NCBI GenBank assembly: GCA_002840365.1
Contig: PHAO01000001.1
Span: 168,647 to 232,646, forward strand
Reading direction: 5' to 3'
DNA from: Candidatus Dojkabacteria bacterium HGW-Dojkabacteria-1
GTDB taxonomy: Bacteria; Patescibacteriota; Dojkabacteria; SC72
DNA length: 64,000 bases
Positions 26,057 to 33,099 of this stretch are shown piece by piece. The translations under genes and the position numbers were made by a program. The notes below the pieces were generated by a model that was given only the letters and a program-made list of their open reading frames with translations, had not been told where the DNA came from and made no database searches. The stretch's first letter is position 1. Each line of letters opens with the position of its first letter.

Positions 26057-26132
26057 CGGGGTGTAGTTCAGATGGCTAGAACGCTTGCATGGGGTGCAAG
26101 AGGTCGCACGTTCAAGTCGTGTCACCCCGACC
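26057..26132 (+). tRNA. tRNA-Pro (anticodon GGG), CCA encoded
   Basis: Acceptor cggggtg/caccccg with C1:G72 (bacterial tRNA-Pro hallmark), anticodon arm cttgc-aUGGGGu-gcaag (U33, G37), T-arm gcacg-ttcaagt-cgtgt, discriminator A + CCA. Confidence 0.8.
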
Positions 26133-26342
26133 AGTTAAGACGAGACCCTCCCGAAACATTGATACATAGGCATTATCAGCGTGATACATGCCATTTATCA
26201 AAATTATCCAGATTCTACTAAATCTGTATAAAGTCCCTTTGTACAAGCATAATCACCGTTCAAGTCCTGTCAGGTCTTTAGCTATATTCCGCTCGTAAAA
26301 ATCGATATCATTTTATTCATATTATTTTTTACTAATATTTAT

Positions 26343-26585
26343 ATGGATAAAATGGATTTAATAGATTCAGATGTAACACTGGATGAGTTATTTGAGTGGT
26401 TGAAGGATGAGATTGAAAAAGGGAATTTTCCACAGTTTCAGGATAAATCAGATGAAGAATTGCTTGAACTTGTTAAGGTTGCAAAGCCATTAATTGAGAT
26501 CGAGCTAAGGTTAGCCAATGCATTTGCATGGGAGCAGGTAAATTCGATTAAGAAAAAGGGTAAGATTCTTCAAAGAAAGGCATGA
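26343..26585 (+). CDS. hypothetical small acidic protein (80 aa), same strand as the OLD-family gene 66 bp downstream
   Basis: ORF only; acidic helical N-terminal part and basic tail (KKKGKILQRKA). Confidence 0.4.
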   Translation: MDKMDLIDSDVTLDELFEWLKDEIEKGNFPQFQDKSDEELLELVKVAKPLIEIELRLANAFAWEQVNSIKKKGKILQRKA

Positions 26586-26651
26586 TCAGTATTATTTTTT
26601 TACTGAAATTGCGAAATGGAATATAATTAACTATACATTGAAGAAAACTAT

Positions 26652-28394
26652 ATGAAGATAAAGAGCGTTACAATTGAGAATTTCCGTTGCTTCGATACCC
26701 CTTTGGTAGTCAACTTTGAGAACTATTCTGGGCTAGTCGGAAAGAATGGAACTGGAAAAACATCTGTATTAGAAGCCATCAACTTAGCTACTTCTCAATA
26801 TTACGTTAGTTCTCGTATAAATGAATCTGATTTTAATAACGAAGAGAATATAAGGATTATAGTAGAATTTGATAAGTGCTTTGTCATGCTCATTCCTGAT
26901 GGTTTTGCTTCCCAATATGTACCTTCAAATAGAATCTATCTAGCAATCTCACGAAGATCAAAGGCCGCTGCCGGTAAGGCTTTAAATGACGGATATACAA
27001 TTAATCATTTTGCAATCCCATATACATATTCAAGTAGCACAGAGCTATCTGATGTATTAGAAGATAGTATGCTAAATGGTCAAGAATCGTTGGATAAGCT
27101 CCCTAATTCAGTACTCCTTAATGGTGACGAAGATGAATACAAGTATAAGATCACCAGGAAGAGTGGTACGGTAAAATACGCAGATTCAAGAAGTCTACAA
27201 CTTTCGAATAACATGATTGGATTCCCAAATGTCTTTTATTTTGATAAAGATCGTGAAGGAGAAACAAGTAAGAAATTCAACAATCTTATGTCTAGGATTT
27301 TAGATGATCTGAATTGGAGATACCTTTCAAAAACAAGCGATGAGACTGAAATACTCCAGTCGGAGGAATCCGAAGGCGAGGCTGTTATGGGAACAGCTAT
27401 TCTAGAGCAACTAATTCTAGATGTATGGGAAGAATATTACAATAAGGTAATTGGTACTGTTGAGAAAGAAAAATCAAAGAGAATTATTTATCCCTTAAAG
27501 AAGAAAATGAAAGACTTCTGGGGTGAGATGTATGAGGATCTAGAACTATCAGTTCTTGATCTTACAAGTCCATTTTCTTCAGGATTCTTCTCTCTAAGGA
27601 AACAGAAGAAATCAAAGCAGATTAAAGTAAACAACTTAGGATCTGGAGAGTCAATGATATTAGCCTATTTCCTCTTGCAAACAATCAGTAAATTATCGAA
27701 AGAGAGGGTAATATATCTTATAGATGAGCCAGAAATGCACTTGCATCCACAGGCGCAGGTTAAGTTATTCGATGAGATACAGAAGTCCAAGAACCAGGTG
27801 ATTTATACAACGCATTCGGATATGTTCGTTGATATTGGGGCTTGGAAATCTATTTTAAGGTTTTCACCAGAAGAGGTCTACCCAACAGAAGAAATTCTGA
27901 ATGACAAGAGCATTGAGGATAAGGCCATTAGTGAGCATCTTGAGGAGATTAAACAGTTCCACCAAGATAAAACAATCTTTGTGAGGGAAAATAATGAAAT
28001 ATTCTTTGCCGATAAGTGTTTGCTAGTTGAAGGTCCTATAGATAAGTATGGAAATGCGATTCTTGCTAAGAAATTATCGAAGGAATTTCAAAACACAACG
28101 ATTGTTAGCTGTACTGGCAAGACAAAAATACTTTATTATGTTCTGCTATGTAAAGCCTTTGGTATCCCTTATTTTGTGATCTATGATCAAGACGAAGAGG
28201 GTAAATATACACTTCTTGAAGATAATTCTGATAATATAGAATCATACACAACATCATTCGAGAAGGTTTTTGAGCAAGGCGAAGAAGCAAGAAGAAACGA
28301 TATTCTTACATATATAATTAATCTTGATAAGGAGAACATTCCAGAGGAAGTTGTGAATATAATTCAAACTATAAGTACTTGGTCAGACGAATAA
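26652..28394 (+). CDS. OLD-family nuclease: single-chain ABC-type ATPase plus C-terminal TOPRIM domain (class-1 OLD / GajA-like)
   Basis: KIKSVTIENFRCF N-terminus; Walker A GKNGTGKTS (26739-26765); ABC-signature-like LGSGES; Walker B/H-loop VIYLIDEPEMHLHP (~27716-27752); TOPRIM Glu LLVEGPID (~28021-28044) and DxD IYDQDEEG (~28181-28204); 580 aa. Confidence 0.8.
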   Translation: MKIKSVTIENFRCFDTPLVVNFENYSGLVGKNGTGKTSVLEAINLATSQYYVSSRINESDFNNEENIRIIVEFDKCFVMLIPDGFASQYVPSNRIYLAISRRSKAAAGKALNDGYTINHFAIPYTYSSSTELSDVLEDSMLNGQESLDKLPNSVLLNGDEDEYKYKITRKSGTVKYADSRSLQLSNNMIGFPNVFYFDKDREGETSKKFNNLMSRILDDLNWRYLSKTSDETEILQSEESEGEAVMGTAILEQLILDVWEEYYNKVIGTVEKEKSKRIIYPLKKKMKDFWGEMYEDLELSVLDLTSPFSSGFFSLRKQKKSKQIKVNNLGSGESMILAYFLLQTISKLSKERVIYLIDEPEMHLHPQAQVKLFDEIQKSKNQVIYTTHSDMFVDIGAWKSILRFSPEEVYPTEEILNDKSIEDKAISEHLEEIKQFHQDKTIFVRENNEIFFADKCLLVEGPIDKYGNAILAKKLSKEFQNTTIVSCTGKTKILYYVLLCKAFGIPYFVIYDQDEEGKYTLLEDNSDNIESYTTSFEKVFEQGEEARRNDILTYIINLDKENIPEEVVNIIQTISTWSDE

Positions 28395-28401
28395 ACTGAT
28401 A

Positions 28402-29556
28402 TTACTTGGGATTAATAATAGTGACTATATTAAGGTTATCCTTACTCATACTGTTTAAATCATTCTCCAATCCTGCAGGGTTACCGATCCTGCCTTCTGG
28501 ATCATAGATAAAACAAATCAAATTTTTACAATCAGGGTGTTTCGAATATCTAGCGATATCAATGATAATCTGTTCTCCAATTTCCTTATCTTCCAAGCCC
28601 TTCCTTGTCTTCTTCACCTCTATAACGGTTTCAATTTCCTTTATCAAGAAATCACTTCGGGATGAGCTTCCTGCGTAGCTTGGGTTCCACTCCTCTTTGC
28701 GAACATCCTCAAATTTTATGTGCAATAACGCATATAATAAATCTTGTACGTCATATTCATCTTCTACCTGAATTGTATCCCGACCGTCATAACGATCCTT
28801 AACTTTTCTAGCAAATCTATGGAAGCCGTTGCACAAATCGAGAACATCCTGTATTTCAGATGTTCTTCCCGTACCCTGCTTAAAATACTTTGACTTGATA
28901 TCAATTTGTTTCAATACGTTACGTGACAAGCGTATTAGCTCCAACATTTTACTAGCTAATAATGTAGTAGAGAGCAGTTCTGAATGGAACTGTATGTGTG
29001 GTGGAACTTTGAATCCTTCAGAAACGGCTCTAGAATCTCTTGATATAGCATTTGAGGGCTGCTGGTATCTGATAAGATCTCTCGTTTGATGGTGTAATTC
29101 CAGATCTTCAATCTTCTTTAGCTCAGCCTGTTGAGTTGAATACTCGTCACTGTCTTTGATAAATGCAAGAGTATTAACAATATCATCTCTAAGTTTCTTA
29201 GCACTTTCAGCAATTTGATTTATCTTGCCACAAAGATCATCTATTTCTTTCAGCTTGTGACTTTCTCCGATCTTACTCTTTACGTCCTCATATGTTTTTT
29301 CGTTCCATCCTGCGGGTATTCCATGATAACCTGCTCCTCCCCATTCAATGTTAAATTTACTTCCAGGAGGTGGTTTCTGAAAATCGCTAAAATATAGGTA
29401 AGCATGGTATCCTAACCAGGAGCCACTCCAAGATTCCTCTAATTTGCTAACGACATCGGCGACATCATCTATCTCCTTAGAATATTTCTTTATATCTGAA
29501 CTATTCTCCTTGTCGAATTTATCTATTTTTTTCTTGAGTTCTTCTAGTTCTTTCAT
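28402..29556 (-). CDS. hypothetical protein: N-terminal alpha-helical domain of unknown family plus C-terminal PD-(D/E)xK nuclease-like domain
   Basis: C-terminal ...EDEYDVQDLLYALLHIKFEDV...SSSRSDFLIKEIETVIEVKK...GEQIIIDIARY fits the E...hhD...ExK...Q..Y pattern of restriction-endonuclease-fold nucleases (motif DNA ~28605-28670). Convergent with the OLD gene (3' ends 8 bp apart); co-directional with the TA pair upstream. Confidence 0.5.
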   Translation of the reverse strand: MKELEELKKKIDKFDKENSSDIKKYSKEIDDVADVVSKLEESWSGSWLGYHAYLYFSDFQKPPPGSKFNIEWGGAGYHGIPAGWNEKTYEDVKSKIGESHKLKEIDDLCGKINQIAESAKKLRDDIVNTLAFIKDSDEYSTQQAELKKIEDLELHHQTRDLIRYQQPSNAISRDSRAVSEGFKVPPHIQFHSELLSTTLLASKMLELIRLSRNVLKQIDIKSKYFKQGTGRTSEIQDVLDLCNGFHRFARKVKDRYDGRDTIQVEDEYDVQDLLYALLHIKFEDVRKEEWNPSYAGSSSRSDFLIKEIETVIEVKKTRKGLEDKEIGEQIIIDIARYSKHPDCKNLICFIYDPEGRIGNPAGLENDLNSMSKDNLNIVTIINPK

Positions 29557-29622
29557 ATGGTAATTATATTAAACCGTAATACATTTGTCGTTTATAAAGT
29601 AATTAGTTGATCTCTTATACTA

Positions 29623-29997
29623 TCAAAGAAATGTTTTGTAGTAGTATTCTAACCTTTCTTTATCTTCATTAGCCTTGTTTCCTTTGTAATATATTTCAAC
29701 CAAAATCACTTTTATATCTTTCTTGATGAAAATATAAATAAGTCTAAGACCTGATTTTGCCCCCTTTCCTTTGAATGATTTTGAAGCGAATTTCTTGACT
29801 TTGCACGAAATAATATCGTCATTGCTGAAGCCCGGTATTGGAAATATTGAATTGTTATCAATGCTGTTGAGATGATATAGACTTATAGCAGCCTTTTTAA
29901 CCACTTCTAAGTCTTCAGGAAGCGTTTTATACTTCTTGCAAAGTTTTTTTAGGTCTTTGTCAAATTCAGATGTTGTTTCAAAGCTAATTTTCCCCAT
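29623..29997 (-). CDS. RelE/YafQ-superfamily type II toxin-like protein
   Basis: 124 aa. FDKDLKKLCKKYKTLPEDLEVVKKAAISL...GLRLIYIFIKKDIKVILVEIYYKG matches the RelE/YafQ/Gp49 layout. Overlaps the upstream HTH-Panacea gene by 14 nt. Confidence 0.55.
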   Translation of the reverse strand: MGKISFETTSEFDKDLKKLCKKYKTLPEDLEVVKKAAISLYHLNSIDNNSIFPIPGFSNDDIISCKVKKFASKSFKGKGAKSGLRLIYIFIKKDIKVILVEIYYKGNKANEDKERLEYYYKTFL

Positions 29998-30766
29998 AAT
30001 TTCTCACTGATGTCTTAGGTGTTCGATAAAATACAGTTTCGTAATCAATGGGTTTCGTGTCTTCGGTAACAATCCAAGGAACATCTTGATGAGAATATTC
30101 GCTTAGCTCACTTGCATTTTTATCTGATAATCTTGCAAGAACTTCATCTATATGACGTAATTCTTGTGCGCTAAGAAGTTTTGATAAATCGGGTTCCCTT
30201 ACAGCTAAATATTTTTTTTGGTCATAGTTAAAGTATTTATTTTTCACTATAACTAACTCTTCTTTTGCAACCATTTCCTCAACAAGCTTTTTAAATTCAA
30301 CCGGTGTTGGTCCATGATGATTTTTTATATATGTTGCTCCTATGAGTTGCTCTTCGTATTTTTCGTAGTAATCAAAATCAATAAAATAAAGTAACTTGTA
30401 TAGTACTGTTTCACCGACATTTGGTTTGGCACCTGCCTTGGTCAGAATATATAAGAAAATTTCACGAAATTTATTGAAATTTTTCTGAGGGATACTAATC
30501 CTTAGATTTTCCTCTTGGTTATCGTTATTGTTCTTCATCTTTTCTATGATATCAATCTTAATCCTATCAACAGGCTTTTGGTTAAGTAGGTCATCGATTG
30601 ACATATTTAACAATTTCGCAAGTTTCTGTAGTTCAGTAAGTGAGAGATCTCTAGTCCCTTGCTCAATATTTATATACGTTGGGCGAGATATCCCTAATTT
30701 CTGGGCAACATAATTTTGGGAGTAATTTAATTTCTCTCTTTGTTTTTGTATATATTTTCCAATCAT
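29984..30766 (-). CDS. XRE-family HTH plus Panacea (DUF4065/SocA-like) domain protein, putative antitoxin
   Basis: N-terminal Cro/C1 HTH (LNYSQNYVAQKLGISRPTYINIEQGTRDLSLTELQKLAKLL). Central VLYKLLYFIDFDYYEKYEEQLIGATYIKNHHGPTPVEF matches the Panacea LxKLLYxxD...GPv core (DNA ~30290-30420). Confidence 0.65.
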   Translation of the reverse strand: MIGKYIQKQREKLNYSQNYVAQKLGISRPTYINIEQGTRDLSLTELQKLAKLLNMSIDDLLNQKPVDRIKIDIIEKMKNNNDNQEENLRISIPQKNFNKFREIFLYILTKAGAKPNVGETVLYKLLYFIDFDYYEKYEEQLIGATYIKNHHGPTPVEFKKLVEEMVAKEELVIVKNKYFNYDQKKYLAVREPDLSKLLSAQELRHIDEVLARLSDKNASELSEYSHQDVPWIVTEDTKPIDYETVFYRTPKTSVRNYGEN

Positions 30767-30791
30767 AGTATTTTGGCAGTTAAATTAAATA

Positions 30792-30932
30792 CTATTTAGT
30801 TCTTTTTTTTCTTTTTTCTCTTTGTGACAACGCACTTCCTGCGACAGATTTTGTTTTTTTTGTGGTTCTCTTATTTCTAAGCAGTGAAGATGCTTTCTTT
30901 GCAACTTTCTTACTGGTTACTTTTCTAGCCAT
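30792..30932 (-). CDS. very small, extremely basic ORF (46 aa: MARKVTSKKVAKKASSLLRNKRTTKKTKSVAGSALSQREKRKKRTK) immediately upstream of the HTH-Panacea gene; speculative
   Basis: Found by hand translation (below the ORF-track size cutoff). A sigma70-like -35/-10 (TTGACA ...15 nt... TATAAT on minus strand, plus coords 30951-30977) lies just upstream. No RBS. Confidence 0.2.
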   Translation of the reverse strand: MARKVTSKKVAKKASSLLRNKRTTKKTKSVAGSALSQREKRKKRTK

Positions 30933-31243
30933 ATCTATGATTCAAATAAAATTATATTTAGATTTTACCGGTGTCAAATATATTTGTCAATACATATGTA
31001 AAGAATGTTGACTTTCATTTATACTTATATGTTTAAATAAGGAAGCTCAAAAAGGAACTTCCACTTATACTCAAACTCTTTAACAAATGAAATAATGCTA
31101 TCAATGAAAGGGAGAATCCGTTCGTACATAGTACGATCACCCCGACCATTTCCATTACTAAGGGTCTAGGAATATATTTCACAATGTTTTGTATCTTTGA
31201 TATTGTAGAACTTGTCTTCTCTTAATTTCAGTACTACCAGAAT

Positions 31244-32184: not shown

Positions 32185-33099
32185 CTACGGGGCTAATAAC
32201 TGGAATGGTGGGGTGAACGAGTCACATCCAACGGGGTCAATAGTGTACCCTTTTCCAGCTAAGTCCTTGGGGACATTTCTCATGGTCTCGAACGACTTGC
32301 CACCGTAGCCATAGGCTTCGGGGCCTGACGGACCAAATTGCCACCAACTAAGGTTCCCGCGAGGGATCCCCGTTGCACTGTAATTTGTACCAGCCCATAC
32401 TAAATATCGGAGAACTTGATTCCCACTCTTAAGTGCATAGCATACCACTTTCTTAATGGGGTCTTGCTCGTTAGGATCTGGCGGCCACCGGTTTTTCAAG
32501 TCAGCAAACACCTGTGTTGCTACATTCGAGCTTCCTGCAACAACGGTATGTGCTTCCTTGTGTTCTGGGCTTACCGGTATATACCCTAGCACTGATGCCC
32601 ATAAGGCCAAGGCGGCACTCAGGTCCATTGGATTATCGTAATATATTGCACCAACAGGTACATTTGCAGTATATACGACATACCCAACGGTTAGGGTTCC
32701 CCAGACAATAAGGGCCAAGACATCGGCTGGACCAGGGGCAGGACTATCCATTACACCAACGGCAGCACCGATGGGCATGACAGCGATTCCTGCTTCTTGC
32801 CAGTTGATGGGCTTGTATAGATAGTACACTTGCAGTCCATCAACGTCTTCTTGCAGTGTTGGGGGAGTTTGAATCCTAACAGGAGTGGGAGTAGTAATAA
32901 CCTTCCCTTCACTTGTAGTTATCGATCCCCCCGCAGGAACAATTGTTGCCTCGGCACTTGCCTGTGCTAGAGGCTGGTTTGAACTATCCGGAATTGCAAC
33001 AGGTTGCGCAACCGGTTGAGTATTCACCCCAGAGGGTGGCGTCGAGCAAGCAGCAAGCATTGCAACGACAAGGACATAAACTACCAGCTTTCTAAACAT
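32185..33099 (-). CDS. lipoprotein of foreign origin (GC ~50% vs ~33% backbone), hypothetical
   Basis: Signal peptide plus lipobox LAACS, a Pro/Thr/Gln-rich linker, then a globular C-terminal domain. Codon usage is strongly GC3-rich, unlike all neighbours. Confidence 0.65.
   Translation of the reverse strand: MFRKLVVYVLVVAMLAACSTPPSGVNTQPVAQPVAIPDSSNQPLAQASAEATIVPAGGSITTSEGKVITTPTPVRIQTPPTLQEDVDGLQVYYLYKPINWQEAGIAVMPIGAAVGVMDSPAPGPADVLALIVWGTLTVGYVVYTANVPVGAIYYDNPMDLSAALALWASVLGYIPVSPEHKEAHTVVAGSSNVATQVFADLKNRWPPDPNEQDPIKKVVCYALKSGNQVLRYLVWAGTNYSATGIPRGNLSWWQFGPSGPEAYGYGGKSFETMRNVPKDLAGKGYTIDPVGCDSFTPPFQLLAP

Follow-up and report, generated by a model that had tools for sequence, protein, structure and literature searches.

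Does an OLD family nuclease encoded in the genome of a small-genome bacterium act together with the small acidic protein encoded immediately upstream, or are the two genes neighbors that belong to different units? The question is raised by a stretch of 64,000 nucleotides (hereafter the window, meaning the whole stretch of DNA that was analyzed) that originates from Candidatus Dojkabacteria HGW-Dojkabacteria-1. In this window an 80-aa ORF (26343-26585) and a 580-aa ORF (26652-28394) lie on the forward strand and are separated by 66 bp, as confirmed by the ORF list. The original prediction, which was made from the sequence letters, took the larger product for a stand-alone OLD family ATPase/Toprim nuclease and the smaller one for its possible regulator, DNA mimic or immunity factor. 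The analysis outlined here supports the first of these proposals and argues against the second. With a probability of roughly 0.8, the 580-aa gene is a single-gene Class 1 OLD nuclease carried in exchangeable cargo linked to a tRNA-Pro gene, and the small protein is not an OLD-specific partner.

Identity and domain organization of the OLD protein

The features of the OLD gene and its product are the following:

26652-28394, forward strand: OLD family nuclease, Class 1, 580 aa (Pfam, PADLOC, structure searches, AF2 and alignment)
residues 1-200 and 297-400 of this protein: ABC ATPase, interrupted by a predicted helical insertion (about 205-296)
residues from about 445 to 540: Toprim region of the C-terminal half, followed by a short C-terminal helical tail
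28002-28271, forward strand: Toprim domain, residues 451-540 (Pfam PF20469 at 451-514, 6P74 alignment and column counts)

The 580-aa protein matches the Pfam families AAA_15 (1.4e-32) and OLD-like_TOPRIM (PF20469; 1.1e-13). A comparison with OLD, GajA and AriA models, which had been proposed as a check, gives PADLOC 'Old' as the best match (2.2e-35), followed by the AriA ATPase (2.1e-34) and GajA (8.9e-28). All motifs that had been claimed for this protein can be read in its sequence, the signature being a degenerate one: the Walker A motif GKNGTGKT (K36), the signature LGSGES, the Walker B motif LIDEPE (D358/E359), the H-loop TTHS (H388), and the Toprim motifs LLVEGPID (E460, D464), TGK (K490), DQD (D512/D514) and SFE (S535/E537). 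In an alignment of 35 OLD members, K36, D358, E359, E460, K490, D512, D514 and E537 are invariant (35/35), all 35 sequences have D or E at position 464, S535 is found in 33/35, and the H388 column contains H or Q. The Toprim acidic residues, whose non-conservation had been named as grounds for abandoning the prediction, are hence conserved (33-35 of 35 members across the Toprim positions). When aligned to the ligands of the Thermus scotoductus enzyme (Ts OLD), E460/D512/D514 constitute the predicted metal site A, and D464/S535/E537 the predicted site B.

The AF2 model of the protein (pLDDT 82.6, pTM 0.81) places three helices (212-234, 244-269 and 272-296) between strands of the ATPase, as in the Ts OLD structure 6P74, with a pLDDT below 50 for residues 204-242. 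About 17 residues lead from the DxD strand (strand 3, 507-512) to strand 4 (529-532), and the C-terminal tail past the Toprim domain comprises about 40 aa. From this short gap and this short tail, the protein is predicted to lack both the Class 2 Toprim insert and the large C-terminal helical domain of Class 2 enzymes. The best solved relative is 6P74, for which the family profile gives E 2.3e-57 and the sequence alone 6.3e-26, compared with only 8e-21 for GajA. Foldseek of the AF2 model likewise returns 6P74 as top match (E 5.1e-25, TMt 0.62), above all GajA chains (9e-17). The exact protein is found only in assemblies of the source species. Its nearest relative is 51% identical, and identity to the solved homologue is about 19%.

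Partner genes of the other OLD classes were searched for in the Pfam annotation of the 10 kb on each side of the gene, and neither a helicase, a DUF4435/AriB protein, a reverse transcriptase nor an integrase was found; Rfam detected no retron-like RNA near the OLD gene. The earlier claim that GajB, AriB and retron partners are missing holds within this range, which also extends beyond the islet, where a helicase gene had been considered as the finding that would change the picture. Gabija can be ruled out by the lack of a GajB UvrD-like helicase in the Pfam-annotated neighborhood and among the islet proteins, PARIS by the fusion of the Toprim domain to the ATPase and the lack of an AriB-like neighbor, and a retron-associated (Class 3) OLD by the lack of a reverse transcriptase within 10 kb and of an Rfam retron RNA.

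The small acidic gene and the tRNA-Pro frame

The OLD gene is located between two conserved flanks. These flanks and the gap directly upstream of OLD contain the following features:

26057-26133, forward strand: tRNA-Pro(GGG) (ARAGORN; Rfam tRNA, 58.5 bits)
26134-26342, forward strand: conserved non-coding spacer ('post') of 209 nt, 72-80% identical in nucleotides at twelve other loci
26343-26585, forward strand: 80-aa acidic helical protein, conserved first gene of a variable array (orthologues, third-position bias, AF2 and junction alignment)
26599-26627, forward strand: promoter-like site TTTACT-17-TATAAT (consensus scan, 10/12 matches; a consensus match and not a proof)
31041-31148, forward strand: conserved element of about 105 bp that closes the cargo, 85-94% identical to copies at three other loci

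The small protein is acidic, as originally described: it has 18 D/E versus 13 K/R, and its pI of 4.72 drops to 4.09 once the basic tail is removed. Doubt on whether it is a protein at all came from the conservation of its block, which exceeds that of its neighbors (89% identity for the small protein versus 58-81% for the neighbors). However, differences from its orthologues fall mainly at third codon positions (e.g., 5/3/21), and this bias, together with conservative replacements, excludes a spurious ORF in a conserved non-coding block and shows that the small ORF is a real coding sequence. AF2 models the protein as a two-helix hairpin (pLDDT 84.5). No family was found for it in Pfam, PADLOC, NCBIfam or PHROGs, Foldseek found no match to this confident model in the PDB (best E 6), and a profile search of 1.84 billion representatives retrieved only 23 relatives. 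The gene is a genuine lineage-restricted orphan, with homologues that are 74-89% identical.

These homologues are found in at least seven further Dojkabacteria contexts, where the following gene encodes a 141-aa, a 168-aa PNPOx-like, a 152-aa, a 104/110-aa or another protein, and in none an OLD. Identity to other Dojkabacteria is 82-84% over positions 26057-26558 of the window, after which no homology is seen until 31041. In the junction alignment this break at 26558 lies 27 nt short of the stop of the small gene, and the last nine codons of the gene (from 26559) are specific to the window. The break falls inside the small gene, and therefore the OLD segment was attached to an already existing gene by cargo replacement. 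The sequence evidence thus places the small acidic gene, in all probability, in the conserved frame of the tRNA-Pro slot and not in the OLD cargo. The candidate promoter in the 66-bp gap suggests that OLD could be transcribed independently. As no terminator was predicted between the two genes, read-through co-transcription, and hence an incidental functional link, is possible.

The segment is bounded by a 12-nt direct repeat. Its left copy, TCACCCCGACCA (26122-26133), is the 3' end of the tRNA-Pro and its right copy, TCACCCCGACCA, lies at 31137-31148; the exact 12-mer is found only twice in the window, with 0.09 occurrences expected. A T-arm-like fragment is present within the spacer near 26255-26280. 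The right copy terminates the element of about 105 bp, which ends with the invariant palindrome TCGTACATAGTACGA followed by TCACCCCGACCA. The element is also present at 16 further metagenome loci, and in an alignment of 23 copies homology ends after CCCCGA(CCA). In other Dojkabacteria the spacer follows either the tRNA-Pro or a copy of the element. The order tRNA-Pro, spacer, small ORF, cargo and element is repeated at four other loci, and also at a fifth (L003), where the contig starts at the spacer; L005, L056 and L058 contain tandem junctions in which the element is directly followed by the spacer. The element has no Rfam match, folding of either strand gives no long hairpin and no fold better than those of shuffled sequences (z -1.2 to -1.8), and the 23-copy alignment contains neither compensatory changes nor covariation. 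An integron attC-like site was ruled out because there is no long hairpin, no covariation and no integrase within 10 kb, and a structured RNA because there is no Rfam match, no fold above shuffles and no compensatory changes.

A possible interpretation is that the frame represents a previously undescribed, integrase-less cargo-exchange locus of Dojkabacteria, in which modules composed of spacer, small ORF (coding for the highly conserved acidic protein of 75-80 aa), cargo and element integrate or stack at CCCCGA(CCA) by means of a recombinase acting in trans. The tandem junctions fit this idea; the interpretation as a whole is considered unlikely. If it were true, the small protein would be a module-maintenance or regulatory factor and OLD one of many alternative cargos.

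The cargo and the contexts of OLD relatives

The cargo occupies about 4.5 kb (approximately 26559-31040) and combines OLD with a DpnII/MboI-fold nuclease and a Panacea toxin-antitoxin pair, encoded by the following genes:

28402-29556, reverse strand: 384-aa protein whose N-terminal part is helical and whose C-terminal part has a DpnII/MboI-type restriction-endonuclease fold (Pfam PF18742, 1.5e-54; PADLOC Aga_Helical-REase, 6.5e-32)
29623-29997, reverse strand: 124-aa putative toxin (no family match; 14-nt overlap with the antitoxin gene)
29984-30766, reverse strand: 260-aa antitoxin with HTH_3 and SocA/Panacea domains (Pfam PF01381, 2.4e-16; PF13274, 1e-17)

The toxin assignment of the 124-aa protein is inferred from its position beside the Panacea antitoxin. 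The 384-aa gene converges on OLD, with 7 bp between their ends, and is a cargo gene in its own right. No methyltransferase is encoded in the islet.

A scan of contigs with the OLD alignment mostly picked up generic P-loop and Walker B patterns and returned 31 distant ABC-ATPase loci with 25-51% local identity; the contexts of OLD relatives were therefore taken from look-ups of exact proteins. None of the five independent contexts obtained in this way contains a small acidic ORF upstream of the OLD relative (L006, L009, L041, L043 and L046), and the neighborhoods differ from each other without a common neighbor. Homologues of the 384-aa protein, the 124-aa toxin and the small protein were not found by tblastn at the loci of OLD relatives. 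Of the five relatives, three are solo. The one in L009 is located inside a type I restriction-modification operon and overlaps the end of hsdS, and the one in L006 overlaps the last part of a GmrSD/SLFN gene, itself located after an MmeI-like methyltransferase gene. This translational coupling to restriction-modification genes in two of the five contexts indicates that some members of this OLD clade may not act alone.

Alternative explanations

The original proposal amounts to a two-gene system in which the 80-aa acidic protein restrains OLD until infection as a regulator, DNA mimic or immunity factor. The co-orientation of the two genes at a distance of 66 bp with no predicted terminator in between, the acidity of the small protein with or without its basic tail, and a 14-15-nt motif, TATTATTTTTT(T)ACT, that precedes both genes are all consistent with such a system. 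However, gene context has already largely refuted it: the small gene is followed by genes other than OLD in at least seven contexts and is absent next to OLD relatives in five of five, the two proteins are unequally conserved (74-89% identity for the small one, no more than 51% for OLD), homology breaks off at 26558 within the small gene, and a promoter-like site is present in the gap. A role of the small protein as partner, regulator or immunity factor of OLD is thus extremely improbable.

Joint action of OLD and the convergent 384-aa protein, as a restriction-like or composite system, would agree with the 7 bp that separate the ends of the two genes and with the overlap of OLD relatives with hsdS and GmrSD/SLFN genes in L009 and L006. 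It is nonetheless an improbable explanation: the convergent orientation means that the two genes are not co-transcribed, no locus of an OLD relative contains a homologue of the 384-aa protein (tblastn), three of five relatives are solo, and the islet has no methyltransferase. Comparably little weight is given to the idea that OLD is a selfish or stabilizing passenger or a decaying remnant with no current defense role, for example an addiction-like nuclease that stabilizes the islet together with the toxin-antitoxin pair. The presence of this pair in the same cargo, the restriction of the exact protein to assemblies of the source species, and the toxicity that OLD enzymes can have, as exemplified by the killing of recBC cells by P2 Old (PMC7049728), are compatible with a passenger. 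A full-length ORF with all catalytic residues intact, however, argues against decay, and the Class 1 OLDs that have been tested act against phages (PMC12392090, PMC13261556).

Proposed function and significance

As a single-gene Class 1 OLD nuclease, the 580-aa protein combines an ABC ATPase, which contains a predicted helical insertion, with a Toprim domain, both predicted metal-binding triads being intact, and its gene has no dedicated partner. Judging from its homologues Ts OLD, P2 Old and Vibrio cholerae Vc OLD, it would dimerize through the helical insertion, and ATP binding and hydrolysis would license the Toprim two-metal site. Phage infection would then lead OLD to nick or degrade DNA, thereby blocking phage replication. 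The cargo that bears OLD sits in a variable slot kept by Dojkabacteria downstream of tRNA-Pro, with a frame formed on the left by the tRNA-Pro, the spacer and the small ORF and on the right by the element of about 105 bp ending in the copy of the tRNA 3' end.

With this protein, a family already recognized for single-gene defense against phages gains a divergent Class 1 member found in the candidate phyla radiation, and small-genome Dojkabacteria would carry such defenses as exchangeable cargo. The understanding of OLD enzymes is not changed by this member. The locus also provides a useful negative, in that adjacency misled: the small acidic gene is part of the insertion site and does not go with the defense gene. 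The tRNA-linked frame, whose 105-bp element exists in multiple copies, is more curious than the OLD gene itself and may provide a path for gene flux in these reduced genomes.

Comparison with known OLD systems

The description of Class 1 OLDs as poorly characterized, which accompanied the original prediction, is now only partly true, as there are studies of P2 Old, Ts OLD, Vc OLD and YbjD (PMC7049728, PMC12392090, PMC13261556). For P2 Old, Ts OLD and Vc OLD, ATP-dependent nuclease activity and phage protection are established (PMC7049728, PMC12392090). The closest solved enzyme, Ts OLD (Class 1; PDB 6P74), has the layout of ABC ATPase, helical insertion and Toprim domain that is predicted for the window protein, although identity over the structural alignment is only about 19%. 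Its metal ligands E377/D431/D433 and D381/S478/E480 (PMC7049728) align to E460/D512/D514 and D464/S535/E537, respectively, its residues K34, E276 and H310 to K36, the Walker B acidic residues and H388, and its H283 to the D-loop histidine H365. The two enzymes differ in the Walker B motif, which has the canonical Asp-Glu (D358/E359) in the window protein and a Glu in place of the Asp in Ts OLD (PMC7049728), and in length, the window protein being about 50 aa longer, with extra residues in the predicted helical insertion and in the region that precedes it. P2 Old and Vc OLD, likened here by description, are also single-gene ATPase-Toprim nucleases on mobile or variable DNA near defense genes, and Vc OLD adjoins DarTG (PMC12392090). 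Vc OLD has an Asn in the metal B site where the window protein has Ser535 (PMC12392090). The triggers of known Class 1 OLDs include the loss of RecBCD for P2 Old and replication for Vc OLD.

Similarity to the other classes is partial. Gabija GajA (Class 2) is homologous in its ATPase and Toprim domains (PADLOC GajA models, 1e-17 to 9e-28; Foldseek, 9e-17), but scores far below Class 1, and the window OLD differs from it in lacking a GajB/UvrD-like helicase within 10 kb and, according to the model, the Toprim insert and C-terminal helical domain of Class 2. The AriA model of PARIS (Class 4) hits the ATPase half (2.1e-34), whereas PARIS carries the Toprim domain on the separate AriB and the window OLD contains it fused in a single 580-aa protein. 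The match to the retron Eco8 OLD (Class 3) is weak (NCBIfam retron_eff_Eco8, 57 bits versus a cut-off of 250).

The frame can in turn be compared with variable defense hotspots and tRNA-linked islets, which likewise contain alternative cargo between conserved flanks, as exemplified by the position of P2 old, known to hold alternative defense systems (PMC10568477). As in tRNA-linked genomic islets, the window segment is bounded by a direct repeat of the tRNA 3' end. It is unlike known hotspots in that no integrase is found in it or nearby and its right border is a highly conserved multi-copy element of about 105 bp and, unlike in defense hotspots, much of the cargo that the frame carries in other genomes looks metabolic instead of defensive.

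Class and active sites of the OLD protein

In the ORF list, the gene for a 580-aa OLD protein follows a small ORF on the same strand after a gap of 66 bp. Candidatus Dojkabacteria bacterium HGW-Dojkabacteria-1, a member of the candidate phyla radiation, is the source given for an identical database protein, annotated "hypothetical protein". The features of the locus are as follows:

26057-26133: tRNA-Pro
26343-26585 (+): small ORF, acidic protein of 80 aa
26652-28394 (+): OLD gene, 580 aa
28402-29556 (-): 384-aa protein, helical at its N terminus and with a DpnII/MboI REase fold at its C terminus (Pfam 1.5e-54), convergent with OLD
29623-30766 (-): toxin-antitoxin-like pair, a 124-aa putative toxin overlapping a 260-aa HTH_3 and SocA/Panacea antitoxin
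31041-31148: window copy of an element of about 105 bp

Every ATPase and Toprim motif attributed to the protein in the original prediction is present in its sequence, which contains Walker A (GKNGTGKT), a degenerate signature (LGSGES), Walker B (LIDEPE), the H-loop (TTHS) and the Toprim motifs LLVEGPID, TGK, DQD and SFE. Its designation as an OLD nuclease is borne out by Pfam (AAA_15, 1.4e-32; OLD-like_TOPRIM, 1.1e-13) and by PADLOC, in which 'Old' is the top model (2.2e-35), with AriA ATPase and then GajA models behind it. With a profile of 35 relatives, by far the closest solved structure is the Class 1 OLD of Thermus scotoductus (Ts OLD; 6P74), matched from end to end (E 2.3e-57), GajA reaching 8e-21 and PtuA, AriA and retron effectors being weaker still; a single-sequence search leaves this ranking unchanged.

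In Ts OLD, metal A is bound by E377, D431 and D433, and metal B by D381, S478 and E480 (Schiltz et al., PMC7049728). HMMER alignments place these ligands at E460, D512 and D514, and at D464, S535 and E537, respectively. The Toprim acidic residues thus prove conserved on proper alignment: E460, D512, D514 and E537, like K490, K36, D358 and E359, are found in 35/35 relatives, position 464 is Asp or Glu in all 35, and S535 is kept in 33. A confident AlphaFold2 model based on the alignment of the 35 relatives (pLDDT 82.6, pTM 0.81) has a helical insertion within the ATPase at about 205-296 (residues 204-242 with low confidence), a compact Toprim domain and a 40-residue tail, and lacks the Class 2 helical insert; Foldseek against the PDB ranks 6P74 first (E 5.1e-25, TMt 0.62), with GajA behind. 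The absence of a GajB-like helicase, an AriB-like Toprim protein and a retron also holds, since Pfam annotation of the 10 kb on each side shows no gene for a helicase, a stand-alone Toprim protein, a reverse transcriptase or an integrase, and an Rfam scan found no retron RNA. By the published criteria for OLD classes (PMC10568477), the protein is very probably a Class 1 OLD.

The small gene and its tRNA-Pro-linked frame

Judged by its sequence, the small ORF is a real gene, intact in 24 homologue clusters with conservative replacements, and with nucleotide differences between orthologues mainly at third codon positions (e.g., 5/3/21). Its product (18 D/E vs 13 K/R; pI 4.72) is modelled by AlphaFold2 as a two-helix hairpin (pLDDT 84.5) with no match in the PDB and no family in four libraries, and a profile search among 1.84 billion representatives returned only 23 relatives. 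The block that runs from tRNA-Pro across a 209-nt spacer into the small ORF (26057-26558) is 82-84% identical in nucleotides between Dojkabacteria, whereas neighbouring core genes are less conserved (72-77% nt; 58-81% aa, vs 89% aa for the small protein), a pattern compatible with strong constraint as well as with recombinational homogenisation. Upstream, synteny with L001 (L-numbers denote comparison loci from other genomes and metagenomes) is clear from miaA through an HD-domain gene. Within the spacer, a T-arm-like fragment (CACCGTTCAAGTCCTGTCAGGTC, about 26255-26280) receives no ARAGORN tRNA call; it may have been left behind by an earlier attachment site.

On the right, homology to other genomes restarts at 31041 with the element, which is present in all inspected Dojkabacteria loci of sufficient extent, as well as in 16 metagenome contigs. 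Copies lie in L001 (11548-11652), L003 (5423-5528), L005 (three copies), L049-L064 and L067 (7312-7416). Its sequence is nearly invariant, with a 20-nt core (CGTTCGTACATAGTACGATC), and in 23 aligned copies homology terminates exactly after CCCCGA(CCA). The 3' end of the window copy, TCACCCCGACCA (31137-31148), exactly repeats that of tRNA-Pro (26122-26133), and this 12-mer occurs at only those two sites in the window (0.09 matches expected). The element always lies 3' of tRNA-Pro, co-oriented with it, and closes variable gene arrays; the order tRNA-Pro, spacer, small ORF, cargo, element recurs in the window, L001, L005, L067 and L071, and in L003, whose contig starts at the spacer. Element copies run directly into spacer copies in L005 (11125-11399), L056 (11391-11922, continuing into the small ORF) and L058 (5850-6154), junctions whose sequence suggests modules in tandem or accretion, site by site-specific joining, at the tRNA core. 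Pfam annotation shows no integrase within 10 kb. The frame could be an integrase-less cargo-exchange locus, although this is rather unlikely. The element has no Rfam family, and an integron attC site was rejected, the element lacking an attC-like fold and its 23-copy alignment showing no covariation. In L005, single genes (acetyltransferase; CTP_transf_like) are each capped by an element copy. IS1595-family transposase genes in several tRNA-Pro-linked arrays (L050 3939-4607 and 5621-6289; L067 5816-6484; L070 6899-7534) may contribute to cargo turnover.

The window cargo (about 26559-31040) is a mini defence islet of four genes: OLD, the 384-aa protein, the 124-aa putative toxin, which has no family match, and the antitoxin. 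The top PADLOC model for the 384-aa protein is 'Aga_Helical-REase'; since neither a methyltransferase nor an Argonaute gene lies within 10 kb, this protein may act on its own as an effector-type nuclease. Beyond the element, a 304-aa ORF (32185-33099, -) has a lipoprotein-like signal peptide and no family match, and its segment (48% GC vs about 33% in the rest of the window) is probably foreign DNA. An ordinary housekeeping RNA, bacterial class A RNase P RNA, lies at 455-755 (+; Rfam 160.8 bits).

Proposed function and alternative explanations

The analysis establishes the domain architecture, the intact ATPase and two-metal Toprim sites, the lack of a conserved partner and the cargo status of OLD. 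By analogy with Ts OLD, P2 Old and Vc OLD (PMC7049728, PMC12392090), the protein would dimerize through its helical insertion and require ATP binding and hydrolysis in vivo; once infection is sensed, its Toprim site would nick or degrade DNA, blocking phage replication. A role in defence is likely. As a whole, we consider it about 80% probable that the locus holds a Class 1 OLD nuclease without a dedicated partner, carried as cargo in a tRNA-Pro-linked slot.

The original prediction instead saw the small acidic protein as a partner of OLD (a possible regulator, DNA mimic or immunity factor), a proposal that gene context contradicts. In the other Dojkabacteria loci inspected, the small gene is never followed by OLD: in L001 it precedes a 141-aa gene with genes of nucleotide metabolism, in L003, L005 and L070 a 168-aa PNPOx-like gene with dehydrogenases or hydrolases, in L071 a 152-aa gene with a similar dehydrogenase/hydrolase set, in L067-L069 a 104/110-aa gene with an IS1595 transposase, and in L056 a 211-aa gene. 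Conversely, OLD relatives occupy five mutually different contexts, preceded by an MmeI-like methyltransferase and a GmrSD/SLFN gene (L006), within a type I R-M operon (L009), alone with methyltransferases alongside (L041), adjoining a serine recombinase (L043) or followed by a 469-aa gene of no assigned family (L046); no small acidic ORF lies upstream of any of the five, and their loci contain no homologue of the small protein, of the 384-aa protein or of the toxin. Identity to the nearest OLD relative is just 51%, vs 74-89% for small-protein homologues. Moreover, nucleotide homology from the tRNA into the small ORF ends at 26558, 27 nt short of the stop codon in the window, and other genomes share a common ...AAGAAAAGTTGATATAAT ending past that point; OLD-bearing DNA was thus joined onto a pre-existing gene, altering its last nine codons. 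The 66-bp gap also contains a predicted promoter-like site (TTTACT-17-TATAAT). On these sequence comparisons, the small protein is not a partner of OLD, and a dedicated pair is highly improbable. A near-identical A/T-rich motif, TATTATTTTTT(T)ACT, lies closely 5' of both the small ORF (26320-26333) and OLD (26590-26604), a good -10 box following only the OLD-side copy.

Cooperation of OLD with a restriction-type nuclease draws on two relatives embedded in R-M loci, one translationally coupled to hsdS by overlapping stop/start codons (L009 6802-9668) and one coupled by the same kind of overlap to the GmrSD_N/SLFN gene behind the MmeI-like methyltransferase (L006 5875-9668), and some members of the clade may be R-M accessories. 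In the window, however, OLD and the 384-aa gene are convergent, and they do not co-occur elsewhere (0/5 OLD-relative loci), which makes such cooperation improbable here. That OLD is a selfish or decaying passenger is equally improbable given its intact residues.

Relation to known OLD systems

Separate from the OLD finding, what is least ordinary about the locus is its tRNA-Pro-linked frame, which combines a multi-copy element with an unusually conserved small gene. Class 1 OLDs are already established single-gene defences, P2 Old, Ts OLD, Vc OLD and YbjD all having been studied, and the protein described here adds a divergent Class 1 OLD from a CPR lineage.
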